A stretch of DNA of 64,000 bases, from the NCBI RefSeq assembly GCF_039555335.1, contig NC_092646.1, positions 58,010,946-58,074,945 of the forward strand. Reading direction: 5' to 3'. Source of the DNA: Amphiura filiformis (Eukaryota). The translations under genes were made by a program, and so were the position numbers. Below, piece after piece: positions 11,087 to 62,721 of this stretch. The number at the start of each line of letters is the position of its first letter. Position 1 is the first letter of the stretch. Below the pieces are notes generated by a model. It was given only the letters and a program-made list of their open reading frames with translations. It was not told where the DNA came from and made no database searches.

Positions 11087-14028
11087 TGTGACACGATCTG
11101 GTACATGGGAGGCATTTTTGAAAATTGAGTTATTGTAATTATTACATTATACATACAAATAGGCTATCATTTACTGAAGATTTCACACCACCAAATAGTA
11201 TATATGGTTGTGCGCCCTTGAATTTCACTTCTCAGAAAAACCCATTGATTCTGAATATAAGCATTAAAATGAGCAGAAATTTGCATAATTTTAGCCAAAT
11301 TTGGATTGGTCATGATTAGTAATATTAATTCCTGCAAGTGTACCACAGATGGGAGAGATCGAATAACTTTTAATGATTTTAAGCAGCCTTTTCTTTACAG
11401 AAACACCGGCATGGTTTTGCCTGAAAAAAGGAAATTCCCAGACATCGTGAGACTTTGAGGGCCAGTCGTAAAAAATAATGACGGTCAACCTATATTTTTC
11501 CCAGCCAGAGGGATCAGGCAAGGGCTGATTTCAACCATCATAGCTGTCGCTTAAAACTGAGTCGCTCCTGTGAAGAAAAAATGACGTTTTCTTAAGGCAA
11601 ATTTAGCACATATCTCTATGGGACTCTGATTTGGTGGTGTGAGATCTGAATGGAGCTGTGTGTGTGAGTCTCAACTTTTGATTGAGCAAGTTAGCCCTGT
11701 GCCTAATTCGTGTTTGGATTCACCGAAGAAGTGCATTGACTGAATTTATGTAATTAAAGGCTAAAATTGAAGAGAACTGCAACATTTGCTACTAATATAC
11801 CAGTGCTAAGGTGAGTTTATGCCCCAAAATGTGTGTTTGAGTGAAAGATTCCATTTCGTAGAGTGACTTAGGCCCATGCAATGTAATCATAATATTTTGT
11901 AAGCTTACATCATCAATGGCATGCAATGACTCAGTGCCAGATAGAGAAGACATTGCAGTATGGTGCTAGGGTACTGGTCGGAACTCATGAAATAGGCGCC
12001 TGGATCAGGTAAGCTTACGGTTTGTGTGTTGGTGGGGGGGGTAGGCTAATTAAGCTTATGATTCCACTACTGGTAACCCAGGTAATGTTTACAATCATGA
12101 TGGTATGCAATGACTCAGTGCCAGATGTAGAAGACATCAGTATATGGTGGCACGTGGGCTAGGGCACTGGTTGGAGCTCATAAAATGTGTCCATGGATCA
12201 GGTAAGCTTAGGGGGGGTTAGACTTAAGATTTCACTAATAGGCCATATAATTCAAAACTTATAATTCAGACATTGTGGTCATGTTCTTCTTTGCTTTTGT
12301 GTGTCTGCCTGGTTACTTGTCCCTCTTGACTGTAAATTGCTGAAAGCCTAAGTCTTGGTGAATTTTTAACATGGTAATCACAATGCTATCTTCAGTAGAT
12401 AGCAGATGTCACAGACACAATGATTCTGCTTGAAAAAAAATTTAACCAGCTTCTTGCTCAAATTATGCTAAAAATAAGTTAATTAGATTAAAATAGTCTG
12501 AAATTAAGGATAATCAGAAACATGTTGCATCATGAATGGAGCTGTGTGTGTGAGTCTCAACTTTTGATTGAGCAAGTTAGCCCTGTGCCTAATTAGTGTT
12601 TGGATTCACCAAGAAGTGCATTGACTGAATTTATGTAATTAAAGGCTAAAATTGAAGAGAACTGCAACATTTGCTACTAATATACCAGTGCTAAGGTGAG
12701 TTTATGCCCCAAAATGTGTGTTTGAGTGAAAGATTCCATTTCGTAGAGTGACTTAGGCCCATGCAATGTAATCATAATATTTTGTAAGCTTACATCATCA
12801 ATGGCATGCAATGACTCAGTGCCAGATAGAGAAGACATTGCAGTATGGTGCTAGGGTACTGGTCGGAACTCATGAAATAGGCGCCTGGATCAGGTAAGCT
12901 TACGGTTTGTGTGTTGGTGGGGGGGGTAGGCTAATTAAGCTTATGATTCCACTACTGGTAACCCAGGTAATGTTTACAATCATGATGGTATGCAATGACT
13001 CAGTGCCAGATGTAGAAGACATCAGTATATGGTGGCACGTGGGCTAGGGCACTGGTTGGAGCTCATAAAATGTGTCCATGGATCAGGTAAGCTTAGGGGG
13101 GTTAGACTTAAGATTTCACTAATAGGCCATATAATTCAAAACTTATAATTCAGACATTGTGGTCATGTTCTTCTTTGCTTTTGTGTGTCTGCCTGGTTAC
13201 TTGTCCCTCTTGACTGTAAATTGCTGAAAGCCTAAGTCTTGGTGAATTTTTAACATGGTAATCACAATGCTATCTTCAGTAGATAGCAGATGTCACAGAC
13301 ACAATGATTCTGCTTGAAAAAAAAATTTAACCAGCTTCTTGCTCAAATTATGCTAAAAATAAGTTAATTAGATTAAAATAGTCTGAAATTAAGGATAATC
13401 AGAAACATGTTGCATCATTCAGATTTCACACCACCAAATAGTATATATGGTTGTGCGCCTTGAATTTCACTTCTCAGAAAAACCCATTGATTCTGAATAT
13501 AAGCATTAAAATGAGCAGAAATTTGCATAATTTTAGCCAAATTTGGATTGGTCATGATTAGTAATATTAATTCCTGCAAGTGTACCACAGATGGGAGAGA
13601 TCGAATAACTTTTAATGATTTTAAGCAGCCTTTTCTTTACAGAAACACCGGCATGGTTTTGCCTGAAAAAAGGAAATTCCCAGACATCGAGACTTTGAGG
13701 GCCAGTCGTAAAAAATAATGACGGTCAACCTATATTTTTCCCAGCCAGAGGGATCAGGCAAGGGCTGATTTCAACCATCATAGCTGTCGCTTAAAACTGA
13801 GTCGCTCCTGTGAAGAAAAAATGACGTTTTCTTAAGGCAAATTTAGCACATATCTCTATGGGACTCTGATTTGGTGGTGTGAGATCTGAAACACCAAAGG
13901 TCTAGTTATGTTATGTTAAGTTATGAAGTTTTTTGATGTCTATTTTCTTGTTTTTTACTCCATATATTTACCTTTATCTCAGTTTCAAATTTGCCGCCTT
14001 TGGCCCCATGGACCAGATCGTGTCACAT
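11087..14028. mobile_element. Second family-T MITE carrying a 2.7-kb nested insertion
   Basis: The ends match the 4760-5390 copy. The internal sequence tactgaa|aacaccaaagg is split by the insert. Confidence 0.7.
11180..13886. mobile_element. Nested insertion with TIR GATTTCACACCACC/GGTGGTGTGAGATC and a TGAA target-site duplication; internal structure is A-B-B-A (about 470-bp A copies, about 880-bp B copies)
   Basis: The uninterrupted target is visible in the paralogue at about 5205. A recurs at 11180-11659 and 13416-13886, and B at 11660-12535 and 12536-13415. Confidence 0.65.
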
Positions 14029-14969: not shown

Positions 14970-15505
14970 AAACTGGTTAACAAAGTTCTTTGTATCTGAT
15001 CCAGAATTTTCACTTACTTGTGTACGTTTCAACAACACCTGTTGTCTTTATCAACACTTGATGGGTAGTGACTGCTACTGACAACCGGCGCTAGAAGTAG
15101 TTCCAGCGTTGATCTTGGAGTTGCCAGTTGGTTTTCCTCGAAGGGATTTTTGGGTCCCTGTTTCAGAAACTCATCAAATATGTGAGATAGTTGGTACTGT
15201 CCTTCATCTCTGTTCATGTTCTCTGTTCAAATAAGAAAGAGGAGGGGCACCACCATGAACAGAGATGAAGGACAGTACCAACTATCTCACATATTTGATG
15301 AGTTTCTGAAACAGGGATCCAAAAATCCCTTGGAGGAAAAACCAACTGGCAACTCCAAGATCAATGCTGGAACTACTTTAGCTAGCCGGTTGTCAGTAGC
15401 AGTCACTACCCATCAAGTGTTGATAAAGACAACAGGTGTTGTTGAAACGTACACAAGTAAGTGAAAATTCAGGATCAGATACAAAGAACTTTGTTAACTA
15501 GTTCA
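14970..15505. repeat. About 535-bp near-perfect palindrome (foldback)
   Basis: 14970-15230 is the reverse complement of 15235-15505. This explains the mirrored ORFs MNRDEGQYQLSHIFDEFLKQG... on both strands. Confidence 0.85.
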
Positions 15506-16344: not shown

Positions 16345-16460
16345 ATGAGTTTCACTTGCCAAACTCAATCCCTTTCTCATTGATCTTCTAGTTGGTTTGG
16401 GTTTTTGACGTGGCATCGCCTCATTCCGCGACATATCCAACATAACTTCTGGCATATCAT
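16345..16460 (-). CDS. Module exon Y (DDMPEVMLDMSRNEAMPRQKPKPTRRSMRKGLSLASETH)
   Basis: The acceptor is tctgttgcag| and the donor CAT|gtaagt. The phase is 1 to 0. Confidence 0.5.
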
Positions 16461-17111
16461 CTGCAACAGATAAATATGATATGATACCAATAAAGACATA
16501 ATAATAAATAACATTGGCCCAACAATTAGGCAAAAAAACAAATTGTTTGCTTGTCCATAGATTACTTTCAGAAGTTGGGTTGGTCGGTCAGTCGGGAAGA
16601 ATTTTTTTCTTGTTTTTTTTTTTTCTTATATCTATTTTTTCAAGTGTTCACTTCAAAATTTATTCAAGATATAGACTCCAAATCTGTGAAAAAAAAATAA
16701 AAATCGCAAAAAAAAATAAATAAAACAGATTTTTTAATTTTTTGGAAAATCATGGTGCGTTTTTTGGCCTCCAAAATCCTGTATTCTTAGCAGCCCTATA
16801 TTAACCGCCCATGCCCCTATAATCACCCACCCAGTGACTTTACAACAAGCAAACCGATATTAGTTTATTAACTGCCCATGCAAATCTGAATCATGGTCTG
16901 ATGCATATGACACACTGATGATAGATGAATATTTTGGGCCATTTTTACATCTTCTTGGCCTTAACAATGTAAAAAATAAGCGCCCACCCAAAATGATTTT
17001 ATTAAATGCCCTGGGCCATTAATGTAGTGTGTAGGTATATAGATTTATATCCAAGTGATGTTTGACCAATGGGATTACAGAATTCATGTCAAAAGCATGA
17101 TGAATAGTTAC

Positions 17112-20772: not shown

Positions 20773-20881
20773 TGATCTCCCTCTAAAACCTTGCTGTTGT
20801 TGTTGTTGTTGGGCAGCTCCAAACAGACTTGCTCCACTTGGTTCAATGGTCTTACGCTGTGCAGCTCCAAAAAGACTTGGT

Positions 20882-21584
20882 TCAGTTGGTTTTCCAAAAC
20901 CTTTTTCTACTTAATCGAGGCTGTGTAACTCCAAACAGACTTGCTCCACTTGGTTCTTCTATGGTCTTACGCTGTGCAGCTCCAAAAAGACTTGGTTCAG
21001 TTGGTTTTCCAAAACCTTTTTCTACTAATCGAGGCTGTGTAACTCCAAACAGACTTGCTCCACTTGGTTCTTCTATGGTCTTACGCTGTGCAGCTCCAAA
21101 CAGACTTGCTCCAGTTGGTTCTTCTGCAGTTGGTTTTCCAAGACCTCCAGCATACTCAGCATCAAGTCGACTGCCCATTGCAGATCCAAACAAATCCCCA
21201 GCATGCGGTGGCAACGATAGAGGTTGAGCTACAGTATCAGGAACATATGTTGGCAACGACATTGTCAACATAGCTGAAGCTAGGATATCACCTGTTGGGA
21301 AGCTAAATCCTGGAGGGGGTGGTGGAGGAGATGCACCACCAAGTTGCGGAGGCGGTGAGGGTGGGAGGCCAAATCCTGGAGGTGGATGAGGTGGAGGTGC
21401 ACCATCAACTGACAGAGTCTTTCTCCTGAGGTCTGGTGGTGGTGGAGGGCCAGCTCCTTGAGATGGGGGTGGTGGGGGTGGGATTCTGTGTTCAATGGGG
21501 CCTTTCAGGGTCAGAATACCTCTTTTACTCTTGGCCTCATGACCAACGTAGCAATCTTTCTGCCCCATGCCGACCATCACTCCC
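20882..21584 (-). CDS. Exon E6: actin-like continuation ([32 protein letters not shown]), then polyproline, then SLFG/FG repeats; terminated by an apparent frameshift
   Basis: The acceptor ctgcag|GGA resumes the actin sequence exactly after RHQ. A 232-aa ORF follows, with roughly 120-bp tandem coding repeats at 20817-21130 whose last copy carries a 1-bp insertion. Confidence 0.55.
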
Positions 21585-22367
21585 TGCAGTAATTATAAAA
21601 CGGAAAAGGAAAAAGATGGGTTCAGAAAAAGTGATAAATAGAGATTAAAAAAAAAAAGCACACACACCAAAATCCGGTTTATTTTCCCCACCTGGGGTGT
21701 TTAACCGTACAGAGCTTGAACTTGAACAAAAAGAAGGGAGTAAAAATCAAAATATTGAACACTTCATGTTGCAAAAATGTCAACAGTAGCTGATGGCTAT
21801 GCACCGGCTTGGGCAGTCTTTTATAGTTCGCAGTTTTTGAAGGCACCCGTTTTCTTAACGGCGTGGTAGGTAGGACACCCTCGCCGATAGGAAGTTGAGC
21901 GATGGCGCACGACCAAAGTCACAAGGGTATGATTCCATTAGTCTGACACGATATGAGCTGTAAGTTATTCAGTCGTCATAACACACATAACATGCACAGT
22001 TGTAGACTAGACTGCTGCCCTCAGTCGTCAACCGTCTGGATTGACGACTGAGAAAACTACGTGGAAAAAAAGTGACGGATTTTGCAACAGGATTCCTGTG
22101 GCATAGAGCATGCGCAGTTGTGTCCAAATTGACCTTTTGACCGAGTTTGTTGTTTTTAGAAGTTCAGAGCGCGATCTTGTCACAGCGGCGCGGTACAGCG
22201 ACGCGATACACGGGCGCCGCTAGTCAGTCGCGCTACGGCGCACAACCAAAGTCGCATTGCATAGTTTTCGGAAGTCCGTCATGATATTGGCTGTAAGATA
22301 ATCAGTCGTCACTACGAAGCACAGTATGCGAAGTGTAGACGGCTGATTGGAATTAGTCTAGTTGTAG

Positions 22368-23268
22368 ACGACAAAGGTTGCAGTCTAGCAAAAAGGTAGA
22401 TTGGGCTAATCCACTTGTAATCCACACTCCCCCCATGGAGATTGTCTTCTACAGGGGGAGTATGAATTTCAAATGGAATGAACACATTAGGCAGCTCCAT
22501 TTGAATTTCATACACCCTCTGAGTAAGATTCAACCTGAATCTTCCACAGTGAGTTTCAAATAAAAGAAGTTAATGTGCTAATTCCAAATTTTTTGGGTTT
22601 TTTTAAATTGTCTGCAAGATACATGTACAGGTATGGCTCTCTGTACAAAAGACAGACGACTTAACGTCCCCTCCAAAGGATGGTGTACTTTCATGATTCA
22701 TTTACCCAATTCTAAATAAACCATGGGGAGAGCGGAAGTCTGAATTTAATCTACAGAATTTGCCAATTAATTTCAGACTTTTTTTTCCAAGTCAATATCC
22801 CAGCAAATCGCCACCGCCGGGTTGCAGTCTAGCAAAAAGGTAGATTGGGCTAATCCAGTTGTAATCCACACTCCCCCCATGGAGATTGTCTTCTACAGGG
22901 GGAGTATGAATTTCAAATGGAATGAACACATTAGGCAGCTCCATTTGAATTTCATACACCCTCTGAGTAAGATTCAACCTGAATCTTCCACAGTGAGTTT
23001 CAAATAAAAGAAGTTAATGTGCTAATTCCAAATTTTTTTTTGTTTGGAAATTGTCTGAGAGATACATGTACAGGTATGGCTCTCTGTACAAAAGACCGAC
23101 TACTTAACATCCCCTCCAAAGGATGGTGTACTTTCATGACTCATTTACCTAATTCTAAATGAAGCATGGGCAGAGTGTAAATCTGAATTCAATCTACAAT
23201 GGTTGTCAATGAATTTCATATATTTTTCCCCAAGTCAATATCCCAGCAAATCTCCACCACCAGGAATT
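22368..23268. repeat. Two tandem copies of a 445-bp composite unit (MITE-A copy plus SINE body)
   Basis: 22395-22560 and 22845-23003 are near-identical MITE-A copies, as shown by the duplicated ORFs MQSSKKVDWANP.../MNLTQRVYEIQ.... Confidence 0.8.
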
Positions 23269-23396: not shown

Positions 23397-25464
<2,068 letters not shown>

Positions 25465-25670
25465 CTGGTGTCTTGGTCGACCTACTATACTAGGGAAAAC
25501 TACCCTAGGTGCATCGTCACCAGCAAACCCTGCCTTGGTCGTATCAAGCCCAAGGTCAATAACCACCACTGCTACATCTTCATCGTCAGGTGATAGCTCT
25601 TCCATTACTGTTATAGGTGGTGGCGGTGGTGGTGCAGGAATGTCAGGTGGTATTCCAGAGGATGCCAAAT
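25465..25670 (-). CDS. Exon E5: proline-rich linker plus actin-like N-terminal segment ([69 protein letters not shown])
   Basis: [24 protein letters not shown] is the actin N-terminal signature. The donor CAG|gtaagt falls exactly at the conserved actin codon-41 intron position. The acceptor is tcttcatctag|. Confidence 0.6.
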
Positions 25671-28398: not shown

Positions 28399-28592
28399 GG
28401 GCTAGCTATAGTCCAGTTGAAATTATACATCCCCTATGGAAGACATTACCTTAATCTCCAACACAGGGGGTGTATGTTTTAAATGGAGTCACTCATTCAG
28501 GTAACCCCATTTGAAATTCACACTCCCTGTGTAGAAGATTAAGGTCATGTCTTCCATAGGGGGTGTATGGATTTCAGCTGGAATAGCCCAAT
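28399..28592. mobile_element. MITE family A, complete copy
   Basis: The arms gtccagttgaaattatacatcccctatggaagacattaccttaatct...agattaaggtcatgtcttccatagggggtgtatggatttcagctggaatagccc are inverted complements. Confidence 0.8.
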
Positions 28593-28639
28593 AAGCCCTC
28601 AACTGTAGTAATGTTGATAGAAAGCAAAATTATACTTTT

Positions 28640-32575: not shown

Positions 32576-32600
32576 GACTGCACGTCATACACCACCTGAC

Positions 32601-32876
32601 ACCGCCTATGAATTACATGACCTTAATCTTCCACAGGGGGTGTAGATTCAAATGGAGTCACCCATCCAGGTAACCCCATTTGAAATTCACACTCCCTGTG
32701 TGGGAGATTAAGGTCATGTCTTCCATAGGGGGTGTATGAATTTCAACTGGAATAGTCCATTTAAGAACAGACGACACTGAATGGGAGACTCCATTTGAAA
32801 TTCACACTCCCTGTGTGGGAGATTAAGGTCATGTCTTCCACAGGGGGTGTATGAATTTCAACTGGAATAGTCCATT
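32601..32876. mobile_element. MITE family A, 1.5 tandem copies
   Basis: Same consensus; the unit is duplicated internally. Confidence 0.75.
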
Positions 32877-33493
32877 CTAAAAAGGTTGAGAATGACTTCT
32901 CTAATATTTTTGCTACAAATCAAATCATATCGATCCATCAATATAGACTTTATTTCCATAAATCAAATTACATATCACGAGTAAAAAGACACCAAAAATT
33001 TCACTATTTTTGAAGAAAATATTTGACCAATTCAACCAAATATAGTTGATAACAGTCTTTTTTTTTTTTTTTTAAGTAAAATGCTAGAGTTAACAATAGC
33101 CCATGAGAATGACACAAGTCAAGAACTTATATAGGCACCTATGCACTATAAAAGACAACCACATGGGCCAGTCAGTGGTTCACAGCAGCTTAGGAACCAC
33201 AAGAGTGAAGGAGTACAGTAAAGCATCAGACAGACACAAGTAATAAGATGCTTATAGTGCATGAAGGATGGTGCACCATTGTCAGATATGTCTCTGACCA
33301 CTCCATCTGGTAGGCTATTGCTATGTCCGGTATATTCATCAATCTTCCGTGTGAATTTAGCAATATTCGGACTGAAACTGACAAAGCTAAAACATACATA
33401 CAACATATATCCCTATTTATAGTAAGATACAAGACAACAGTGATTGTGCAAGAGCAATCCAGTGGCCTTAATGAGGCTAGCAGCGACTGCCCT

Positions 33494-33771
33494 TGGGCTA
33501 TTCCAGTTGAATCCATACACCCCCTATGGAAGACATGACTTTAATCTTCCACACAGGGGGTATGAATTTCAAATGGGGCTACCTGAATGGGTGACTCCAG
33601 TTGAAATCCATACACCCCTATGGAAGACATGACATTAATCTTCCACACAGGGAGTGTGAATTTCAAATGGGGTTACCTGAATGGGTGAATCCATATGAAA
33701 TCTACACCCCCTGTGTGGATGATTATGGTTATGTCTTCCATAGGGTGTATGGATTTCAGTTGGAATAGCCC
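33494..33771. mobile_element. MITE family A, 1.5 copies
   Basis: It runs from gggctattccagttgaatccatacaccccctatggaagacatgac to catagggtgtatggatttcagttggaatagccc. Confidence 0.75.
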
Positions 33772-33789
33772 TTTTTGAACTAATCATAC

Positions 33790-33936
33790 CTTGAAATAGA
33801 GAGGATCATCATTGCTACAATTGTCTTTTGCAAACTCTAGAGCCTCTTCATAGTATCGCTGAGCAGACATGATGGAGAAAGTCTCCTCTTTATGTGCCTT
33901 TTGGAGTAAGTCTTGCACAGTTTCTTCAGGGGAGAT
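33790..33936 (-). CDS. Exon E1 of a multi-exon gene (ISPEETVQDLLQKAHKEETFSIMSAQRYYEEALEFAKDNCSNDDPLYFK); it may contain the start codon
   Basis: The acceptor is ccttcctttttcag| and the donor AAG|gtatga. The exon is 147 bp, phase 0 at both ends, with an open frame. Confidence 0.5.
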
Positions 33937-34329
33937 CTGAAAAAGGAAGGGAACAAAATTTAGGTTTTCCCCAATGAGGTAGAATCAAAGAGTACCAACT
34001 CTGCCACGTTTGCGTGTCGCTCATGGAGGCGGATTACTTCGCTATTCGCCCAGCAAACGATCCAAAGTGGGTGCTTGTTCACGTTCTGTATGTAACATGT
34101 TGTTCAAAAACACGATCCAAGCACTGTGTAGACAAACCTTAGTAACAAAAGATGCAAATTTGTTGTTCAATTTCGGCCCTCTCTCGATGAATGCAGGAGG
34201 TACGTTATCTACCCTCCATGATGAGCACCAAACCAAGATGGTGGACTTACATGTAGCATTACATATGGTACAATTTTGAGTCAGTAAACTTTAGTATCTT
34301 TGGTTTGTCCACATGTATAGGTCTATGTA

Positions 34330-37060
34330 TTTATACTTACTTCCAGGGTCTGTGATTGTCCAGGAGGACTCTTGGTTGGTTCCCATCCCATATAGGTATG
34401 TGTATCAATACTTACTTCTAGGGTCTGTGGTTGTCCAGGAGGACTCTTGGTTGGTTCCCATCCCATGTGGGTATGTATATTATCAATACTTACTTCTAGG
34501 GTCTGTGGTTGTCCAGGAGGACTCTTGGTTGGTTCCCATCCCATGTGGGTATGTATATTATCAATACTTACTTCTAGGGTCTGTGGTTGTCCAGAAGGAC
34601 TCTTGGTTGGTTCCCATCCCATATAGGTATGTGTATCAATACTTACTTCTAGGGTCTGTGGTTGTCCAGGAGGACTCTTCATTGGTTCCCATCCCATGTG
34701 GGTATGTATATTATCAATACTTACTTCCAGGGTCTGTGGCTGTCCAGGAGGACTCTTCGTTGGTTCCCATCCCATGTGGGTATGTATATTATCAATACTT
34801 ACTTCTAGGGTCTGTGGTGGTCCAGGAGGACTCTTCATTGGTTCCCATCCCATGTGGGTATGTATATTATCAATACTTACTTCTAGGGTCTGTGGTTGTC
34901 CAGGAGGACTCTTGGTTGGTTCCCATCCCATGTAGGTGTGTGTATCAATACTTACTTCTAGGGTCAGTGGTTGTCCAGGAGGACTCTTGGTTGGTTCCCA
35001 TCCCATGTAGGTATGTGTATCAATACTTACTTCTAGGGTCTGTGGTTGTCCAGGAGGACTCTTGGTTGGTTCCCATCCCATGTAGGTATGTGTATCAATA
35101 CTTACTTCTAGGGTCTGTGGTTGTCCAGGAGGACTCTTGGTTGGTTCCCATCCCATGTGGGTATGTATATTATCAATACTTACTTCTAGGGTCTGTGGTT
35201 GTCCAGGAGGACTCTTGGTTGGTTCCCATCCCATATAGGTATGTGTATCAATACTTACTTCTAGGGTCTGTGGTTGTCCAGGAGGACTCTTGGTTGGTTC
35301 CCATCCCATGTAGGTGTGTGTATCAATACTTACTTCTAGGGTCCGTGGTTGTCCAGGAGGACTCTTGGTTGGTTCCCATCCCATGTAGGTGTGTGTATCA
35401 ATACTTACTTCTAGGGTCTGTGGTTGTCCAGGAGGACTCTTCGTTGGTTCCCATCCCATGTGGGTATGTATATTATCAATACTTACTTCTAGGGTCTGTG
35501 GTTGTCCAGGAGGACTCTTCGTTGGTTCCCATCCCATATAGGTATGTGTATCAATACTTACTTCTAGGGTCTGTGGTTGTCCAGGAGGACTCTTGGTTGG
35601 TTCCCATCCCATGTAGGTATGTGTATCAATACTTACTTCTAGGGTCTGTGGTTGTCCAGGAGGACTCTTGGTTGGTTCCCATCCCATATAGGTATGTGTA
35701 TCAATACTTACTTCTAGGGTCTGTGGTTGTCCAGGAGGACTCTTCGTTGGTTCCCATCCCATGTGGGTATATGTATTTAGAGAATAAGCGATAGGAATTT
35801 TTATTTTGCCTATCCTCTACCGTGTGATAGGCGACAGGCAGGTCCAATATTTTGAGTAGTGGATGCCGCGCAGCCGGTATCCACTACGATAAAAATATTG
35901 GACCTGCCTGTCGCTCATCATAGGTAGAGGATAGGCAAAATAAAAATTCCTATCGCTTATTCTCATTCAGTTAAATATTATTTTAATAACTGTAAACAAT
36001 TTTTTTAAAGTAAAAACTAAGTTACCGTCATAAAAACTCCCCTCATTATAAAATGAACGAAACTGGTTTACAACTTCACGTATTCTCATTTTATGCAGTA
36101 CTGCTAGCGCGCTTTTGCGTATTCCGCACTAGTCTACGCATCCAGCGCGATACATACGCCGCATCTCTACACGCGTGTTACGCATTATCCAGACGCATGA
36201 TGACGTGGGGTCGCTCTCACGGCCTGATAGACGGCACCGAAATCATGCGATTGTCTAATCAGAAATGTGTCTACGAACTAGACCACTCCCACTGACTAAG
36301 AAATTATCAATACTTACTTCTAGGGTCAGTGGTTGTCCAGGAGGACTCTTGGTTGGTTCCCATCCCATATAGGTATGTGTATCAATACTTACTTCTAGGG
36401 TCTGTGGTTGTCCAGGAGGACTCTTGGTTGGTTCCCATCCCATATAGGTATGTGTATCAATACTTACTTCTAGGGTCTGTGGTTGTCCAGGAGGACTCTT
36501 CGTTGGTTCCCATCCCATATAGGTATGTGTATCAATACTTACTTCTAGGGTCTGTGGTTGTCCAGGAGGACTCTTCGTTGGTTCCCATCCCATGTAGGTA
36601 TGTGTATCAATACTTACTTCTAGGGTCTGTGGTTGTCCAGGAGGACTCTTCGTTGGTTCCCATCCCATGTAGGAGTGTGTATCAATACTTACTTCTAGGG
36701 TCTGTGGTTGTCCAGGAGGACTCTTCGTTGGTTCCCATCCCATGTAGGGGTGTGTATCAATACTTACTTCTAGGGTCTGTGGTTGTCCAGGAGGACTCTT
36801 CGTTGGTTCCCATCCCATGTAGGAGTGTGTATCAATACTTACTTCTAGGGTCTGTGGTTGTCCAGGAGGACTCTTGGTTGGTTCCCATCCCATGTGGGTA
36901 TGTATATTATCAATACTTACTTCTAGGGTATGTGGTTGTCCAGGAGGACTCTTTGTTGGTTCCCATCCCATATAGGTATGTGCATCAATACTTACTTCTA
37001 GGGTCTGTGGTTGTCCAGGAGGACTCTTGGTTGGTTCCCATCCCATATAAGTCAATGTAT
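34330..37060. repeat. Satellite B: 75/78-bp unit x about 30, in two blocks (34330-35785 and 36300-37060)
   Basis: The unit is tacttacttctagggtctgtggttgtccaggaggactcttggttggttcccatcccat(a/g)t(a/g)ggtatgt(gt)atcaa. ORFs are open on both strands (493 aa on the plus strand, 479 aa and 320 aa on the minus strand). Confidence 0.9.
35780..35964. repeat. 185-bp near-perfect palindrome interrupting satellite B
   Basis: agagaataagcgataggaatttttattttgcctatcctctac ... gtagaggataggcaaaataaaaattcctatcgcttattctc; centre at about 35872. Confidence 0.85.
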
Positions 37061-37237
37061 CAATCTCTTCTTTTCTCAGCAGCTCTTCTATGTCTACTGC
37101 TTTCATCTCCTTTTTGTCTTCGTCCTTCATAAATAACAATAAGAGTATGATAATAATGAAAACTATTATTATAGACAGTTTGTATTCTTTGGAGCATTTG
37201 CTTGATGATGAAAGCACTCATATGGCAACATGCAATG

Positions 37238-37424
37238 TGCTATTCCAGTTGAAATCTCTACACCCACTATGGAAGACATGACCTTAATCTCCCATACAGG
37301 GAGTGTGAATTTCAAATGGAGTTACCTGAATGAGTGACTCCATTTGAAATCGACACCCCCTGTATTTGAGATTAAGGTCATGCCTTCCGTGGGGAGGGGG
37401 GATCTCAACTGGAATAGCCCAATG
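37238..37424. mobile_element. MITE family A, complete copy
   Basis: Same consensus with terminal inverted repeats. Confidence 0.8.
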
Positions 37425-37477
37425 ATATTGTAAAATCAGGCTTTTGCATGCCCAATTGATACACCACAGTTACATGC

Positions 37478-40400
37478 ACACCAAGTTTTCTTATGGCCAG
37501 TTAGTGAGTGGCCTATAGCAGAGTTACTACAGAGCTACTCCAAGCTGGAGTAGCTCTGCAGTATCTTCAGAACCACTGCATAGCTATTCCACTATAGAGT
37601 ACCGAAGTGATGACGTCACAAGAAACTTTTTTTGCATTTCAGCGTTTTGAATACCATGTATCAGTGGAGCATGATGAAAAATATCCACAGTCCAAATTTG
37701 GTGGGAATCGGATCATGAGGGCCCGAGATATGGTCGCATGAATACCTAATTAGTGTAAATTGGCCTGGTTCCAAACAGTTATGAGACCAGGCCAATTTAG
37801 AGGGCGCAACACTAAATCACTCCGCATTTTATGTAACAACAAAATTCGGCTAATATAGTCCATAGTGAATATGAGATTGCAGCGACCATATCTACCGACA
37901 TGTTCACTTTAAATCACTCAATATCGGCTCATATGAATTCGACAAGTGTCTTTAATGATAACATGCAGATAAAAACTGAACAATTGATCTCAAAAGCAAT
38001 TCTCTGTGGCGGATTAAGAGAAAACCCGATTTTGAAATGTGAGTGGTGAGTTTAGCATATTTTTAGCTCTTTTTTTTTGCACCGAAAATTAAGAAAAAAG
38101 TCAATGGTCATCGATATATGCCGACAAAAGTTTTGGAATCTAGAGAAACAGAGCTTTAATTTGATACCAAATTTATTTTGCCAAGTATTGCAGGGACGCC
38201 AGAAATGGCGCTTGAAGTAGGCGAAATCACACGTTATCCTATGGGACGCTGAATTAGTGCTGCTCCCCCTTGTAACGGCCGTCATTATGAACGCGTTCCT
38301 TTTACATTCTTGGCAAGCAAAATAAGAGACGCGCTTCACAAAATGTGTTCTATTTCCATCATGATGATAAACAAGTATTACAAAAAGTCATCCTCATGAA
38401 AAATTATTGGAAAAAACACTTTATTGGCCGAGTAGGCGCCTTCAAAGTCAAGAAATGCATCCAAAAATCCTCAAAAAGGTTCATAAATGGATTTTAAGGT
38501 TAATAGACATTATTAATCTGCATGAAGCCGTTTTGCTGAATATTCAGTAGGCCTACTCAAAAAGATCGCAATTGTTACTACTGGAAGGGGGGTATTTATA
38601 CTTGAGACTCAGTAATAAATGATTTCCAAAAAAAATGGCAACACTGATAATCTAGAAAAGAAATTAATCTTGGTTCAAAGACGTGCTCAAATTGTCGTCT
38701 GTCACTAATTTTGTGAGTTTTGTATAAACTTTCGCATATTGGAGGAAAAGTCGAAATATTCGATTTTCGGCATTTCGGCACTGATCTTTAAAACATCATT
38801 TCTCTTGAACGGAATGTCATGAGAGCCATGAAATCTTCGGTGTTGAGCTTCAAATTTTCTCTAGTTTACTTAATGAGTAATAAATGTGGATTTTGAAAAC
38901 TTTTAACACCTTATAAGAGGCGCAACACTAAATCACTCCGCATTTTATGTAACAACGAAATTCGCTAATATAGTCCATAGTGAATATGAGATTGCAGCGA
39001 CCATATCTACCGACATGTTCACTTTAAATCACTCAATATCGGCTCATATGAATTCGACAAGTGTCTTTAATGATAACATGCAGATAAAAACTGAACAATT
39101 GATCTCAAAAGCAATTCTCTGTGGCGGATTAAGAGAAAACCCGATTTTGAAATGTGAGTGGTGAGTTTAGCATATTTTTAGCTCTTTTTTTTTGCACCGC
39201 AAATTAGCGAAAAAAGTCAATGGTCATCGATATATGCCGACAAAAGTTTTGGAATCTAGAGAAACAGAGCTTTAATTTGATACCAAATTTATTTTGCCAA
39301 GTATTGCAGGGACGCCAGAAATGGCGCTTGAAGTAGGCGAAATCACACGTTATCCTATGGGGCGCTGAATTAGTGCTGCGCCCCTTGTAACGGCCGTCAT
39401 TATGAACGCGTTCCTTTTACATTCTTCGCAAGCAAAATAAGAGACGCGCTTCACAAAATGTGTTCTATTTCCATCATGATGATAAACAAATATTACAAAA
39501 AGTCATCCTCATGAAAAATTATTGGAAAAAACACTTTATTGGCCGAGTAGGCGCCTTCAAAGTCAAGAAATGCGCCCAAAATCCTCAAAAGGTTCATAAA
39601 TGGATTTTAAGGTTAATAGACATTGTTAATCTGCATGAAGCCGTTTTGCTGAATATTCGGTAGGCCTACGCAAAAAGTCCGTAATTGTTACTACTGGAAG
39701 GGGGGCGTATTTATACTTGAGACTCAGTAATAAATGATTTCCAAAAAAATGGCAACACTGATAATCTAGAAAAGAAATTAATCTTGGTTCAAAGGCGTTG
39801 CTCAAATTGTCGTCTGTCACTAATTTTGTGAGTTTTGTATAAACTTTGATATTGGAGGAAAAGTCGAAATAGTCGATTTTCGGCATTTCGGCACTGATCT
39901 TTAAAACATCATTTCTCTTGAACGGAATGTCGCAGAGACATGAAATCTTCGGTGTTGAGCTTCAAATTTTCTCTAGTTTACTTAATGAGTAATAAATGTG
40001 GATTTTGAAAACTTTTAACACCTTATAAGAGGGCGCAACACTAAATCACTCCGCATTTTATGTAACAACGAAATTGCTAATATAGTCCATAGTGAATATG
40101 AGATTGCAGCGACCATATCTACCGACATGTTCACTTTAAATCACTCAATATCGGCTCATATGAATTCGACAAGTGTCTTTAATGATAACATGCAGATAAA
40201 AACTGAACAATTGATCTCAAAAGCAATTCTCTGTGGCGGATTAAGAGAAAACCCGATTTTGAAATGTGAGTGGTGAGTTTAGTATATTTTTAGCTCTTTT
40301 TTTTTTTGCACCGCAAATTAGCGAAAAAAAGTCAATGGTCATCGATATATGCCGACAAAAGTTTTGGAATCTAGAGAAACAGAGCTTTAATTTGATACCA

Positions 40401-41866
40401 AATTTATTTTGCCAAGTATTGCGGGGACGCCAGAAATGGCGCTTGAAGTAGGCCGAAATCACACGTTATCCTATAGGGCGCTGAATTAGTGCTGCGCCCC
40501 CTTGTAACGGCCGTCATTATGAACGCGTTCCTTTTACATTCTTCGCGCAAAATAAGAGACGCGCGCTTCACAAAATGTGTTCTATTTCCATCATGATGAT
40601 AAACAAATATTACAAAAAGTCATCCTCATGAAAAATTATTGGAAAAAACACTTTATTGGCCGAGTAGGCGCCTTCAAAGTCAAGAAATGCGTCCAAAAAT
40701 CCTCAAAAAGGTTCATAAATGGATTTTAAGGTTAATAGACATTATTAATCTGCATGAAGCCGTTTTGCTGAATATTCAGTAGGCCTACTCAAAATATCGC
40801 AATTGTTACTACTGGAACGGGGGGGTGGGGTTATTTATACTTGAGACTCAGTAATAAATGATTTCCAAAAAAAATGGCAACACTGATAATCTAGAAAAGA
40901 AATTAATCTTGGTTCAAAGCGTGCTCAAATTGTCGTCTGTCACTAATTTTGTGAGTTTTGTATAAGCTTTCGCATATTGGAGGAAAAGTCGACATATTCG
41001 ATTTTCGGCATTTCGGCACTGATCTTTAAAACATCATTTCTCTTGAACGGAATGTCGCAGAGCCATGAAATCTTCGGTGTTGAGCTTCAAATTTTCTCTA
41101 GTTTACTTAATGAGTAATAAATGTGGATTTTGAAAACTTTTAACACCTTATAAGAGGGCGCAACACTAAATCACTCCGCATTTTATGTAACAACGAAATT
41201 CGGCTAATATAGTCCATAGTGAATATGAGATTGCAGCGACCATATCTACCGACATGTTCACTTTAAATCACTCAATATCGGCTCATATGAATTGACAAGT
41301 GTCTTTAATGATAACATGCAGATAAAAACTGAACAATTGATCTCAAAAGCAATTCTCTGTGGCGGATTAAGAGAAAACCCGATTTTGAAATGTGAGTGGT
41401 GAGTTTAGCATATTTTTAGCTCTTTTTTTTTTCCTCAAATTAGCGAAAAAAAGTCAATGGTCATCGATATATGCCGACAAAAGTTTTGGAATCTAGAGAA
41501 ACAGAGCTTTAATTTGATACCAAATTTATTTTGCCAAGTATTGCAGGGACGCCAGAAATGGCGCTTGAAGTAGGCCGAAATCACACGTTATCCTATGGGG
41601 CGCTGAATTAGTGCTGCGCCCCCTTTACACTGATTTCAATGGGGCTAATTAGGTATTCATGCAGCCAGATCTCGGGCCCTCATGATCCGATTCCCACCAA
41701 ATTTGGACTGTGGATGTTTTTCATCCTGTTCTCATGAAAATGCTGAAATGCAAAAAAAAAAATTTTATGACGTCACACTTCGGTACTCTATGCAGTAGCT
41801 CATAGTGGAATAGCTGTAACTCTGCTATGGGCCACCCACTAACTGGCCATAAGAATATAGTTGTGT
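37478..41866. mobile_element. Large element with about 330-bp terminal inverted repeats enclosing 3.4 copies of a 1.1-kb tandem repeat
   Basis: 37478-37800 is the reverse complement of 41620-41866 (ggccagttagtgagtggcc...gtaactctgctatgg). Internal units start at about 37800, 38920, 40022 and 41155. Confidence 0.75.
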
Positions 41867-44149: not shown

Positions 44150-46621
44150 GCAATTTAACTCCAAACTCAGAATAAGAATATTTGGGTGATTTGGCCTCAA
44201 TGTGAGGTAGAATACACAATGTGTTACACTTGGACCACAATCTGGTCATGCACCTTTAACTCCAAACTCAGAATACGAATGTTTGGGTGATTGGCCTCAA
44301 TGTGAGGTAGAATACACAATGTGTTACACTTGGACCACAATCTGGTCATGCACCTTTAACTCCAAACTCAGAATACGAATGTTTGGGTGATTGGCCTCAA
44401 TGTGAGGTAGAATACACAATGTGTTACACTTGGATCACAATCTGGTCATGCACCTTTAAGGGTGATTGGCCTCAATGTGAGGTAGAATACACAATGTGTT
44501 ACACTTGGACCACAATCTGGTCATGCACCTTTAACTCCAAACTCAGAATAAGAATGTTTGGGTGATTGGCCTCAATGTGAGGTAGAATACACAATGTGTT
44601 ACACTTGGATCACAATCTGGTCATGCACCTTTAAGGGTGATTGGCCTCAATGTGAGGTAGAATACACAATGTGTTACACTTGGACCACAATCTGGTCATG
44701 CACCTTTAACTCCAAATTCAGAATAAGAATATTTGGGTGATTGGCCTCAATGTGAGGTAGAATACACAATGTGTTACACTTGGACCACAATCTGGTCATG
44801 CACCTTTAACTCCAAACTCAGAATATGAATGTTTGGGTGATTGGCCTCAATGTGAGGTAGAATACACAATGTGTTACACTTGGACCACAATCTGGTCATG
44901 CACCTTTAACTCCAAACTCAGAATAAGAATGTTTGGGTGATTGGCCTCAATATGAGGTTGAATACACAATGTGTTACACTTGGACCACAATCTGGTCATG
45001 CACCTTTAACTCCAAACTCAGAATAAGAATGTTTGGGTGATTGGCCTCAATGTGAGGTAGAATACACAATGTGTTACACTTGGACCACAATCTGGTCATG
45101 CACCTTTAACTCCAAACTCAGAATAAGAATGTTTGGGTGATTGGCCTCTCTGTGAGGTAGAATACACAATGTGTTAACAACACTTGGACCACAATCTGGT
45201 CATGCACCTTTAACTCCAAACTCAGAATATGAATGTTTGGGTGATTGGCCTCAATGTGAGGTAGAATACACAATGTGTTACACTTGGACCACAATCTGGT
45301 CATGCACCTTTAACTCCAAACTCAGAATAAGAATGTTTGGGTGATTGGCCTCAATGTGAGGTAGAATACACAATGTGTTACACTTGGATCACAATCTGGT
45401 CATGCACCTTTAAGGGTGATTGGCCTCAATGTGAGGTAGAATACACAATGTGTTACACTTGGACCACAATCTGGTCATGCACCTTTAACTCCAAACTCAG
45501 AATAAGAATGTTTGGGTGATTGGCCTCAATGTGAGGTAGAATACACAATGTGTAACACTTGGATCACAATCTGGTCATGCACCTTTAAGGGTGATTGGCC
45601 TCAATGTGAGGTAGAATACACAATGTGTTACACTTGGACCACAATCTGGTCATGCACCTTTAACTCCAAACTCAGAATAAGAATGTTTGGGTGATTGGCC
45701 TCAATGTGAGGTAGAATACACAATGTGTTACACTTGGATCACAATCTGGTCATGCACCTTTAAGGGTGATTGGCCTCAATGTGAGGTAGAATACACAATG
45801 TGTTACACTTGGACCACAATCTGGTCATGCACCTTTAACTCCAAACTCAGAATATGAATGTTTGGGTGATTGGCCTCAATGTGAGGTAGAATACACAATG
45901 TGTTACACTTGGACCACAATCTGGTCATGCACCTTTAACTCCAAACTCAGAATATGAATGTTTGGGTGATTGGCCTCAATGTGAGGTAGAATACACAATG
46001 TGTTACACTTGGACCACAATCTGGTCATGCACCTTTAACTCCAAACTCAGAATACGAATGTTTGGGTGATTGGCCTCAATGTGAGGTAGAATACACAATG
46101 TGTTACACTTGGATCACAATCTGGTCATGCACCTTTAAGGGTGATTGGCCTCAATGTGAGGTAGAATACACAATGTGTTACACTTGGACCACAATCTGGT
46201 CATGCACCTTTAACTCCAAACTCAGAATAAGAATGTTTGGGTGATTGGCCTCAATGTGAGGTAGAATACACAATGTGTTACACTTGGACCACAATCTGGT
46301 CATGCACCTTTAACTCCAAACTCAGAATAAGAATGTTTGGGTGATTGGCCTCAATGTGAGGTAGAATACACAATGTGTTACACTTGGATCACAATCTGGT
46401 CATGCACCTTTAAGGGTGATTGGCCTCAATGTGAGGTAGAATACACAATGTGTTACACTTGGACCACAATCTGGTCATGCACCTTTAACTCCAAACTCAG
46501 AATAAGAATGTTTGGGTGATTGGCCTCAATGTGAGGTAGAATACACAATGTGTTACACTTGGATCACAATCTGGTCATGCACCTTTAAGGGTGATTGGCC
46601 TCAATGTGAGGTAGAATACAC
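44150..46621. repeat. Satellite A, block 1: about 28 copies of alternating 100-bp and 75-bp units
   Basis: The unit is gggtgattggcctcaatgtgaggtagaatacacaatgtgttacacttggaccacaatctggtcatgcaccttta[actccaaactcagaataagaatgttt]. Confidence 0.9.
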
Positions 46622-48423
46622 AGCGGTTTTCCACTTTTTAAGCCCAGTACTGGGCCAGTGTTGGGCAAGATCTAGCGGCACGGATTGAGCTATAAAAATG
46701 CCCCAATACTAGGCGGCAAAAGTGACACTTTTATTGGGCCAATTCTAGCGTACTCGCAATTGCCCAGTTCAAGCCACAAGTACTGGCCCAGTTCTAGTAG
46801 TACTACGGGCTGTCCCTAAAGTTGCCTGAAATTAAAATTATTTTCATGGGACGCCGTGTTTGGTTATCATGTTTATTGTATTTATTCTCGGAACCAGTAC
46901 TATTTACCCAAAAAGCTAACATTTAGCAGTATGAATAAGCAGTATTATAGACGTGTGAATTGGTTTGTGAGTTTGGCACAGCTTTAACTACTGAGTGAAG
47001 TTCAACACCGTGGTGTTTTATGTAACGGTAAGTAAATCATGACATTTTTTAATGAGTATGATACATGGATAAGCCGCAGTATGCATGTCATTGTATGCAT
47101 GTATCAATACTATCATTGTATCAATGTATGCATGGTATGCATAGTCACTGTAGTAGACTTGTAGTATAGCATGGCTAAGCCTAGAGCTTTTTGATTGTTT
47201 TATTTTTGTTTCAATTTCTCTAACCAGTTGTGTATGGCACCGTATAAATATCGTCATGATCATTAAGCTTAATCATTGTCAGGTAGGCCTAAAGTATTAT
47301 TCAGATTTCCTTTTACAAATTAAGCGTACTGCTAGCTGTCCAGCGCATCTTATTTTGCACATGGTCCAATGCACACGCTTGACGTCGCGCACGTATATGC
47401 GATGGTTAATTTGTAAAAGGAAATCTGAATATTACTTTAGTGTTCATACATACGTGTTATATTGGTCGATAGGCGGGCATAAACAACATTTATGCCCTGC
47501 TTTCTGGTCGTAAACAAGCCGCGTCAGAACCGATGAACGCCATGAGTAGGATATCTGCAGCGTATGCTTATGAAAGCTATTTACATAAAGCGCGAATGAT
47601 GTCTGCGATGTTCGTGGCGTCCAAACACGGTGGACTGAGCAAGTAAACGTTTTCTTACAATTAGCAATGGAAAAACTTTTAAAAAGGATTAGAAATTGAT
47701 AGTTTTTAGACTAAAATGACGATATTTTTTAGTTGTGGAGGAAAATAACAGCACTCAGAATGTTGTGTATGTATGAACGGGGTTCATTCATATATTTTCA
47801 GGACTAAACGTTGTTTATGCCCTCGGGCATAAACAATTGTTTAGTCATGAAAATATATGAATGAACCCCTAAATCATCAGTGACAGTGGCGTGCCATGCC
47901 CCCCACTTTTGTTGGTCATTCGGGGGAAAATGTTAAAAACGTCAAAATTTGCTGCTAATCAGACTCCATTCGGGGAACTTAACAACCTGCCCACCCCCCC
48001 CCCCCCCCCACCCCACTTTCAATGTGCTGGCCACGCCACTGGTCATCATAGGTAGATGGGAGAAATTTTGTCCCCGGAATTTTGTTTGCACAAACCATGA
48101 CTGGGCCGCTATTTAAAACGCTATACTGGCAAAAAGTGCCAAAGAACTACATGTACGGTAGTGTAGGCCTACCATTCTACTATCTTTCTTCAACTCATTT
48201 GACTCGTAACAATTTGATAGAGAGAGACTGGGGAGTGCGCGCATTTGTGAGCACAGTGCATTTTTTTATGTCGAGCATATCTACATGTAGGCATTAAACC
48301 ATGTTAACAGCTGAAATCTGGGCGATAATGCTGACGAAACTTCGACCAGGCACAATTAGTGACCTGGTGAACGAAGGGGCCGCCGTGGATAGCTGGTCGG
48401 GGATTTTTTGCAGGACAGTCAAG

Positions 48424-59526: not shown

Positions 59527-60960
59527 GTACACAATGTGTTACACTTGGACCACAATCTGGTCATGCACCTTTAACTCCAAACTCAGAATACGAATGTTTG
59601 GGTGATTGGCCTCAATGTGAGGTAGAATACACAATGTGTTACACTTGGATCACAATCTGGTCATGCACCTTTAAGGGTGATTGGCCTCAATGTGAGGTAG
59701 AATACACAATGTGTTACACTTGGACCACAATCTGGTCATGCACCTTTAACTCCAAACTCAGAATAAGAATGTTTGGGTGATTGGCCTCAATGTGAGGTAG
59801 AATACACAATGTGTTACACTTGGACCACAATCTGGTCATGCACCTTTAACTCCAAACTCAGAATAAGAATGTTTGGGTGATTGGCCTCAATGTGAGGTAG
59901 AATACACAATGTGTTACACTTGGATCACAATCTGGTCATGCACCTTTAAGGGTGATTGGCCTCAATGTGAGGTAGAATACACAATGTGTTACACTTGGAC
60001 CACAATCTGGTCATGCACCTTTAACTCCAAACTCAGAATAAGAATGTTTGGGTGATTGGCCTCAATGTGAGGTAGAATACACAATGTGTTACACTTGGAC
60101 CACAATCTGGTCATGCACCTTTAACTCCAAACTCAGAATAAGAATGTTTGGGTGATTGGCCTCAATGTGAGGTAGAATACACAATGTGTTACACTTGGAT
60201 CACAATCTGGTCATGCACCTTTAAGGGTGATTGGCCTCAATGTGAGGTAGAATACACAATGTGTTACACTTGGACCACAATCTGGTCATGCACCTTTAAC
60301 TCCAAACTCAGAATATGAATGTTTGGGTGATTGGCCTCAATGTGAGGTAGAATACACAATGTGTTACACTTGGACCACAATCTGGCCATGCACCTTTAAC
60401 TCCAAACTCAGAATATGAATGTTTGGGTGATTGGCCTCAATGTGAGGTAGAATACACAATGTGTTACACTTGGACCACAATCTGGTCATGCACCTTTAAC
60501 TCCAAACTCAGAATAAGAATGTTTGGGTGATTGGCCTCAATGTGAGGTAGAATACACAATGTGTTACACTTGGATCACAATCTGGTCATGCACCTTTAAG
60601 GGTGATTGGCCTCAATGTGAGGTAGAATACACAATGTGTTACACTTGGACCACAATCTGGTCATGCACCTTTAACTCCAAACTCAGAATATGAATGTTTG
60701 GGTGATTGGCCTCAATGTGAGGTAGAATACACAATGTGTTACACTTGGATCACAATCTGGTCATGCACCTTTAACTCCAAACTCAGAATATGAATGTTTG
60801 GGTGATTGGCCTCAATGTGAGGTAGAATACACAATGTGTTACACTTGGACCACAATCTGGTCATGCACCTTTAACTCCAAACTCAGAATATGAATGTTTG
60901 GGTGATTGGCCTCAATGTGAGGTAGAATAGAATAGAATAGAATAGAATAGAATAGAATAG
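59527..60960. repeat. Satellite A, block 2, ending in (GAATA)7
   Basis: Same unit; the microsatellite lies at 60925-60960. Confidence 0.9.
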
Positions 60961-61215
60961 ATTTATTAGTGGAGGCGCACTCCAAACACAATCTTACATG
61001 GCAGTGTAACCAAGCTCAACATGACCGAAAAAATGTATGAACCATATCACTTCGCAGCAAAACTGCAGCCACAAAAAGGCGCAAACTGACAAGGTTACAC
61101 AACCTTGAAGTGATATAGAAAATACATTAGTACAATTGAGCAGAATTACACTGAATTGCATAAAATTGGTGACAAAAACACAAACAAGCAAAACAAAAAG
61201 GATAAAAACTGAAAG

Positions 61216-62460: not shown

Positions 62461-62721
62461 AATGGCACATATCCATAGACAACTTGTCGAGATCCACTAA
62501 ACAATGAAGTGATCTGACTGGGTGCTTGAATTGGTCTTGGTGCGTGGTTATCAAACTGTTGCCATTCCACACTGACTGATGTCAACACCGGATGAGAAGA
62601 TTTGTTCAGTTGAGACTTGATCTTTCCTTCCCATTTGGATTTCACTTTGCTGTCAAAGAACTGGAATGCTCCAGCACCGACTCGTGCAAGCGCCCTCAGT
62701 AGATGACGATTGGCTGTGGAA
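62461..62721 (-). CDS. Next exon of the VWA5A-like gene (SSTANRHLLRALARVGAGAFQFFDSKVKSKWEGKIKSQLNKSSHPVLTSVSVEWQQFDNHAPRPIQAPSQITSLFSGSRQVVYGYVPFCTK)
   Basis: Its phase is compatible with the exon at 63126. The acceptor is atttatctcag| and the donor AAG|gtaaaa. It encodes the end of the vWA domain plus following conserved region. Confidence 0.65.

Follow-up and report, generated by a model that had tools for sequence, protein, structure and literature searches.

A 75/78-bp Satellite Resembling Mini-Exons Is Probably an Exon-Junction Minisatellite in a PARP4-like Gene of Amphiura filiformis

The satellite described here, with a period of 75 or 78 bp, lies in a stretch of 64,000 nucleotides of Amphiura filiformis DNA (contig NC_092646.1, positions 58,010,946 to 58,074,945), referred to below as the window. 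It is likely to be an exon-junction minisatellite whose host is a minus-strand gene of PARP4-like (vault poly-ADP-ribose polymerase) type, and copies 2-29 of its unit would lie in an intron. The origin and identity of the array, namely the end of a single exon (exon C) that was copied in tandem together with its splice donor, can be stated with high confidence. A satellite that seems to be coding on both strands is thereby explained as a copy-number expansion, and a false annotation as a "secreted repeat protein" is averted.

Origin of the Repeat Unit

The presence of the satellite, which had been noticed in an original prediction made from the letters of the window, is borne out. With Tandem Repeats Finder, an array of 75-bp period is placed at 34318-37064 (score 2678; 36 copies, counted across an insertion), and anchoring on a conserved 12-mer resolves 29 head-to-tail units at 34335-37064 on the minus strand. 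Twenty of the 29 units measure 75 bp and eight 78 bp, while one is interrupted; the anchors are spaced by 75 or 78 bp apart from a single gap of 606 bp, which arises because a 524-bp non-repeat insertion sits there. The copies fall into structured variants (75/78 types, ACC/ACG, TAT/TAC). No further occurrence of the satellite was found elsewhere in the window, which consists of repeat-rich eukaryotic DNA with a G+C content of 36-44% and 72 Tandem Repeats Finder rows.

On the gene strand, the unit reads ATTGAT...CTAGAA followed by GTAAGT, that is, the donor hexamer preceded by the terminal 69 nt of exon C (IDTxTYMGWEPTKSPPGQPQTLE). It is contiguous with the end of exon C and 91% identical to it, in the same place, strand and frame. 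Successive copies meet at GTAAGT|ATTGAT, and after the last copy the intron continues as GTAAGT|ATAAATACATAG, which resembles the start of the orthologue's intron (GTAAGTAGAAATAATG). The string GAAGTAAGT occurs 29 times on the gene strand within 34300-37130 and nowhere else in the window. A minus-strand donor is present in 29 of 29 units, as had been proposed, but the true boundary is GAA|GTAAGT and not GAAG|GTAAGT, one G having been counted twice.

The homologues place this junction in a protein. After the conserved ...FTSFVAVE... stretch they continue as ...PSIEELVAKEDIDILPYMGW, followed in the homologue P0007 by 14 residues and then by ISPEQ...; the window beside the array reads ...AVDIEELLRKEEIDTLTYMGW-EPTKSPPGQPQTLE, and ISPEETVQ... 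stands 400 bp beyond the far end of the array. Judged from these sequences, every minus-strand donor in the satellite reproduces an authentic 5' splice site, and the minus-strand frame has its origin in true coding sequence. A reading of each gene-strand unit as a micro-exon (cag|ACCCTAGAA|gtaagt, with 66-nt in-frame introns and 9-nt exons) was also considered and was not adopted.

Host Gene and Orthologous Locus

A protein query joined from four exon-like, stop-free minus-strand segments on both sides of the array matches PARP4-like proteins, with 62% identity in Anneissia japonica and 56% in Lingula anatina, and with further matches in Ridgeia and Bulinus. The exons of the vWA region, together with the segment ...FTSFVAVE...PSIxELVxKExVDxLxYMGW..., find their match in Anneissia, Lingula, Saccostrea and Bulinus proteins that carry a PARP4-like annotation. 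In tblastn the homologues are colinear on the minus strand (63385-63128, 62741-62454, 43508-43428, 42882-42700, 37091-36990 and 33945-33790). The best matches bearing the PARP4-like name carry PF13768/PF00092, and in the host gene the conserved FTSFVAVE...LPYMGW segment comes after the vWA-type domain. The window covers only the C-terminal half of the gene; the upstream part, in which the PARP catalytic, BRCT and VIT domains of a PARP4 would be expected, falls outside it (>64000).

The exons on either side of the array are individually recognizable. Exon B aligns with five homologues at 57-80% identity (tblastn, E down to 2.5e-26). Exon C, whose product is DEDKK...IDTLTYMGWEPTKSPPGQPQTLE, has phase 0 at both ends, and its terminal 69 nt are repeat copy 1; it is matched in tblastn by P0007 (E 2e-4), P0001, P0005, P0002 and P0008, and the homology to PARP4-like proteins begins at its acceptor (K|DED...; tttatgaag|GAC). 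Exon D (ISPEETVQDLL...DDPLYFK, phase 0) matches P0007 with an E-value of 1.2e-5 and opens a 14-3-3-like helical region, for which the Pfam 14-3-3 match is weak in the window and above the curated cut-off in P0007. This C-terminal region is common to the window gene and P0007 and is absent from most other matches, which are partial. The junctions of exons B, C and D, with boundaries read from the letters, are all of phase 0. Since a further coding segment, exon E, is conserved downstream, the gene continues past the array.

The orthologous locus of a related species, L001, is a 38-kb ENA contig of the assembly ERZ25070167 that was reached via the protein match P0017. It holds the same exons in the same order, with 63-100% amino-acid identity to the window, and carries an ORF (open reading frame) with a VIT domain upstream. 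The counterpart of exon B (13285-13467) is 95% identical in amino acids. Exon C, at 15128-15256, comprises 43 codons as in the window (DEESDMKKEVNIDELLQNEAVDALTYMGWEPTKIPPGQPQIQD), with the acceptor ttttacag|GAT and the donor GAT|GTAAGT, and exon D, at 16352-16498, shares 63% of its amino acids and 79% of its nucleotides with exon D of the window. In the 1.1-kb intron between the two, Tandem Repeats Finder detected no array down to a minimum score of 30, and the exon C segment is single-copy; the repeat frame is thus not conserved at the orthologous locus of the related species. When exons B, C (with one copy) and D of the window are spliced together, the product aligns without gaps to the L001 orthologue (75% identity) and, across the C/D junction, also to P0007 (49%), where YMGW is followed by 14 residues and ISPE. 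A search with the spliced B-C-D-E protein returned single-copy relatives only, with a single YMG[WFY] segment in the more distant ones.

The two loci also differ in the exon of the vWA region. L001 (9575-10234) has an intron of about 660 nt, GGAAAG|gttagc...tgtacag|GTGAAG, between KWEGK and VKSQL, while the window at 62618-62624 is without it and the coding sequence reads straight on (GGAAAGATCAAG).

Age and Constraint of the Extra Copies

Copies 2-29 share 94% identity with one another, whereas the identity of exon C between the two species is 71%; either the array therefore arose after the species diverged, or it is being homogenized. Copy 1 retains the Leu of IDTLTY, a position at which the orthologue and five other aligned homologues have Leu or Ile, and copies 2-29 have His. 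Among copies 2-29 there are 18 distinct variants, of which six are synonymous, twelve non-synonymous and none a stop; the expected fractions are 0.24/0.71/0.05, respectively (P = 0.26). Extended to six frames, the comparison of synonymous and non-synonymous changes revealed no frame that departs from the neutral expectation, although with 18 events its power is low. Nothing in the copies themselves points to purifying selection on a translated repeat.

The openness of the frames can be judged in the same way. Across the repeat units there is one stop-free frame per strand, i.e., two of six, as the original prediction had it. In shuffled 75-mers of the same composition, however, the mean number of open frames is 1.58 of six and the probability of at least two is 0.51; two open frames are at chance level, and openness alone is therefore no signal. 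Moreover, the 524-bp insertion holds five stops in the gene-strand frame, so that neither frame is open over the whole array.

This insertion, which lies inside copy 11, is probably a young mobile element that we leave unclassified. It is flanked by TTA/TTA (35777-35779 and 36304-36306), a possible target-site duplication that recalls those of the PIF/Harbinger type. It begins with a near-perfect palindrome of 185 bp (35780-35964) with 42-nt outer arms that are 100% complementary, and no terminal inverted repeats were found between its two ends. Neither the window nor L001 contains a further copy. Its open frame of 93 codons has no match in Pfam, and the insertion has none in Rfam.

Comparison with Known Exon-Junction Repeats

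The array displays the sequence-level features of the exon-junction minisatellites of the F7/IFI6/CBS/LMNB2/PDGF type: it is tandem, its first monomer spans the exon-intron boundary, and the donor is reiterated. In the 37-bp variable number tandem repeat in intron 7 (IVS7) of F7, the identical downstream donors are functional, and the most upstream one alone is used (Borensztajn et al. 2006, PMC1557585); this repeat serves as a model of how one of several identical 5' splice sites is selected. As in F7, the first monomer here extends over the boundary and identical donors follow within the intron. The F7 unit, on the other hand, consists of 4 nt of exon and 33 nt of intron, is present in 5-9 copies, is not a multiple of 3 and has a weaker donor (TGG|gtgggt), whereas the unit here comprises 69 nt of exon and 6 nt of intron, in 29 copies that are in frame and carry the near-consensus GAA|GTAAGT.

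The same paper summarizes the other cases. By its account, LMNB2 and PDGF, with units of 100 and 81 bp, respectively, splice from the authentic donor alone, and IFI6 (6-16) and CBS (31-bp unit) also employ the two donors that follow it; in LMNB2, PDGF and CBS, repeats that reiterate the junction cover much of the intron in 10-20 copies. The 12-nt minisatellite of IFI6 (Turri, Cuin & Porter 1995, cited in PMC1557585) is described there as an authentic donor followed by 25 pseudo-sites, each step adding four residues. Relative to that summary, the array resembles IFI6 in having reiterated in-frame donors at an exon end, of which the later ones are here predicted to add whole codons, but the gain per step would be 25-26 residues, taken from the exon's own coding sequence, instead of four. 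With LMNB2, PDGF and CBS as summarized, it shares tandem repeats that reiterate the exon/intron junction over much of the intron. Those are other genes with other unit compositions, all mammalian, and none is reported in that account as split by a transposon-like insertion, unlike the split array of this invertebrate gene. The array thus differs from the described cases in a unit that is nearly all exon (69 of 75 nt) and in frame, in its 29 near-consensus donors, in its transposon-like split and in its invertebrate PARP4-like host.

Arrays of spliced-leader ("mini-exon") RNA genes are similar in that a 5' splice site follows a short, exon-like stretch in each of their tandem units. This identity was rejected: the unit has no Sm-site-like AUUUUG and no Rfam match to a spliced leader, it is derived from a coding exon, and it lies inside the intron of a gene.

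Proposed Formation and Donor Use

The 75-bp segment made up of the last 69 nt of exon C and the first 6-8 nt of the intron (GTAAGT[AT]) would have been duplicated in tandem to 29 copies, by replication slippage or unequal exchange; such an origin, followed by neutral evolution, seems most likely. Copy 1 would have remained the working exon end, while copies 2-29 would now make up most of the 3.06-kb intron between exons C and D, and the 524-bp insertion would have split them at a later time.

Splicing would proceed mainly from the donor at 36995 to the acceptor at 33937|33936, removing 3,059 nt with 28 copies and the insertion. We expect this first donor to predominate, and hold this with reasonable confidence because of the human precedents collected in PMC1557585. 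The donors of copies 2-10 are located at 36920, 36842, 36767, 36692, 36617, 36542, 36467, 36392 and 36317, each GAA|GTAAGT. As the units measure 75 or 78 nt, are free of stops and meet junctions of phase 0, these donors would insert whole blocks: through leaky use, a linker of poor conservation would gain 25-26 residues at each step (VS-IDTHTYMGWEPTKSPPGQPQTLE), with the frame kept. Donors 11-29, the last of which is at 34340-34335, would include the stops of the insertion and lead to premature termination. The one-copy junction is predicted to yield the peptide GQPQTLEISPEETVQDLLQK, whereas TLEVSIDTHTYMGWEPTK and TLEVSIDNIHTHMGWEPTK are predicted from read-through only.

We consider it improbable, though worth stating, that the array acts as an in-frame "donor ladder" in which the choice among donors 1-10 would lengthen, by steps of 25-26 residues, the linker that joins the vWA region of PARP4-like isoforms to their 14-3-3-like C-terminus. 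If so, changes of copy number in the population would tune the range of the linker. Whatever its use, the array is an unusually clean natural substrate for the study of 5' splice-site choice, in which, outside the mammals, 29 identical donors close to the consensus follow one another every 75 nt and ten of them preserve the frame; the evidence that the most upstream donor wins comes so far from a few human genes.

Alternative Explanations

An exon C that reads through up to ten units as modules of 25-26 residues, or that gives rise to graded isoforms by donor choice, would turn the satellite into a translated repeat domain. Ten units are indeed open, with lengths (75 and 78) divisible by 3, and the C/D junctions have phase 0; the homologues differ from one another in the sequence of the linker after YMGW and in how long it is, and the second and third reiterated donors are used in IFI6 and CBS. 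Yet with 69 nt in every 75 recently copied from coding sequence, the frame would be expected to be open in any case. The orthologue and each homologue seen are single-copy, the conserved Leu is replaced by His in copies 2-29, the pattern of substitution is neutral, the array is split by a stop-bearing insertion, and F7, LMNB2 and PDGF use the first donor only. Taken together, these observations make a translated repeat unlikely. We regard as more doubtful still that the array is an ordinary non-genic satellite that resembles the exon by coincidence, or that its copy number was inflated by an assembly artefact. Satellites abound in the window, as the number of Tandem Repeats Finder rows attests, and long near-identical arrays are difficult to assemble; against this, the unit adjoins the end of a conserved exon at the 91% identity given above, on the right strand and in the right frame, and structured variants together with a unique insertion are unlike a simple artefact of collapse or expansion.

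An independent minus-strand gene for a secreted repeat protein, as the original prediction had envisaged, is highly improbable. It was suggested by the ORF at 36255-37217, whose 320 codons lead from a hydrophobic run, taken as a signal peptide, into P/T/Q-rich repeats, of which ten are counted and not eleven. A stop codon lies just before the GTG that opens the frame, and the first ATG is found 3' of the run, so the supposed N-terminal leader is preceded by no start codon. The run itself is the pyrimidine/AT-rich tract of a conserved acceptor, at the 3' end of intron B-C, and L001 has two in-frame stops upstream of exon C in its place; the prediction's own caveat, that the stretch could be a coincidence in an AT-rich flank, was well founded. 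What follows 3' of the run belongs to the PARP4-like exon. No homologue of the ORF or of the repeat peptide was found among 5.8 billion proteins, and a Pfam scan of the ORF gave sub-threshold matches alone (Tissue_fac, KAR), which are inflated by the repeats and were rejected. An Rfam scan of 33500-37500 (E<=1) returned nothing within the array, apart from which it gave sub-threshold miRNA-like matches on flanking hairpins and palindromic elements; neither the unit junction nor a degenerate YMGWEPTK pattern was matched in scans of metagenome contigs.

Scarcely credible are mini-exons on the plus strand, one of 49 nt per unit between tacttacttctag| and |gtatgt. The motifs that had been pointed out, "tacttacttctag|G" and "ATAG|gtatgt", do occur in most units, and one plus-strand frame is open. 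They are, however, exact reverse complements of gene-strand sequence: tacttacttctag is that of CTAGAA|GTAAGTA, and gtatgt is that of the codons ACA-(C)AT-AC within ACA-CAT-ACC-TAT. The resulting introns would measure 26 nt, to our knowledge too short for animal spliceosomal introns, and an exon length of 49 nt is not divisible by 3. The plus strand showed no gene context, and the open antisense frame is at chance level.

Several points weigh against the exon-junction minisatellite that we favour. The choice among 29 donors is carried over from mammalian precedents to an invertebrate, and the array is known from a single assembly, in which an error in copy number is possible. The PARP4-like label comes from best matches of 56-62% identity, and the window shows the part of the gene from the vWA region to the C-terminus, where the PARP catalytic domain is not seen. 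Finally, the neutrality test is a weak one, given its 18 events, and unit lengths of 75 and 78 that are multiples of 3 and free of stops are what a translated repeat would show as well.

Feature Coordinates

Table 1. Positions of the exons, repeat copies and insertion in the window.
Feature	Position	Strand	Description
Exon B	42882-42700	-	MLHQLTARAIIRDWEDG...FTSFVAVETRDK; acceptor cattgtag|ATG, donor GACAAG|gtatgg
3' end of intron B-C	37125..37217	-	AT-rich, pyrimidine-rich tract ending ...ctcttattgttatttatgaag; corresponds to the "hydrophobic leader" IIIVFIIIILLLLF
Exon C	37124-36996	-	129 nt, 43 codons, DEDKKEMKAVDIEELLRKEEIDTLTYMGWEPTKSPPGQPQTLE; acceptor ctcttattgttatttatgaag|GAC, donor CTAGAA|GTAAGT
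Repeat copy 1	36990..37064	-	Last 69 nt of exon C (ATTGAT...CTAGAA) and authentic donor GTAAGT (36995-36990)
Repeat copies 2-10	36312..36989	-	One of 78 bp, the other eight of 75 bp; continue the exon C frame without stops
524-bp non-repeat insertion	35780..36303	.	Inside copy 11
Distal part of interrupted copy 11 and copies 12-29	34335..35779	-	Copies 12-29: 11 of 75 bp, 7 of 78 bp; GAA|GTAAGT in each
Unique remainder of intron C-D	33937..34334	-	Begins ATAAATACATAGACC... right after the last GTAAGT; acceptor cccttcctttttcag
Exon D	33936-33790	-	147 nt, 49 codons, ISPEETVQDLLQKAHKEETFSIMSAQRYYEEALEFAKDNCSNDDPLYFK; acceptor cccttcctttttcag|ATC, donor TTCAAG|gtatga
Exon E, next conserved coding segment	29083..29178	-	QALVNAAKFFYDIQDHPGKVEEIFDVGSLESK; tblastx vs L001 18504-18599, 56% identity, E 1.2e-7

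Other Repeats and Genes in the Window

A second array of an exon end with its donor is found at 24062-25538 on the minus strand, only 9 kb from the 75-bp array. It comprises about nine copies of a 170-bp unit, whose exonic part is the 3'-terminal ~73 nt of the first coding exon of an actin-like gene, followed by the donor CAG|GTAAGT and ~97 nt of intron. The next exon of the actin-like gene lies at ~21583, with the acceptor ctgcag|GGAGTGATGGTC (also written ctgcag|GGAGTGATGG). Spliced from the first donor, the product matches positions 2-67 of Pfam Actin (E = 6e-16) and then becomes proline-rich. A period of 170 cannot be divided by 3; this genome therefore tolerates reiterated donors whatever the frame, which lessens the weight of any argument from the 75/78 periodicity. 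Given the two arrays, it is conceivable, though in our view improbable, that some mechanism in this genome favours the start of tandem duplications at transcribed exon-intron junctions. The occurrence of both arrays within 64 kb suggests that gene models of this repeat-rich genome will frequently run into reiterated donors, and annotation pipelines can mis-call such arrays as long repeat exons or frameshifted genes.

Further repeats occupy the introns of the PARP4-like gene. Much of intron B-C is taken up, at ~37840-41600, by about four tandem units of ~1.1 kb (ORF fragments ..NIVHSEYEIAATISTDMFTLNHSISAHMNSTSVFNDNMQIKTEQLISKAILCGGLRENPILKCEW), a period above the limit used for Tandem Repeats Finder. 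A complex satellite with periods of 75/100/175/275 bp (unit GGGTGATTGGCCTCAATGTGAGG...) is present in two introns, at 44154-46622 and 59528-62383, and is unrelated in sequence to the exon-derived 75-bp array. An ORF resembling a MYND zinc finger (..CARCKTVKYCSTRHQSEHWPCHRDNC..) is situated at 61219-61563 on the minus strand, also within an intron of this gene.

A short palindromic element recurs in many copies (37212-37400, 33500-33780, 32600-32920, 28490-28630, 22300-23010 and others), with the ORF signature ..IHTPPMEDMTLI.., ..HPLWKT; one hairpin, at 37279-37380, has a sub-threshold MIR5649-like match in Rfam (52.6 bits vs a cut-off of 100). Exon fragments resembling HSP70 occur at 7490-7864 and 8646-8897 on the minus strand. 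Downstream of the actin-like exons, a 114-bp tandem repeat of 2.7 copies at 20817-21120 falls in a proline-rich, FG-like coding region and is possibly a genuinely coding repeat.

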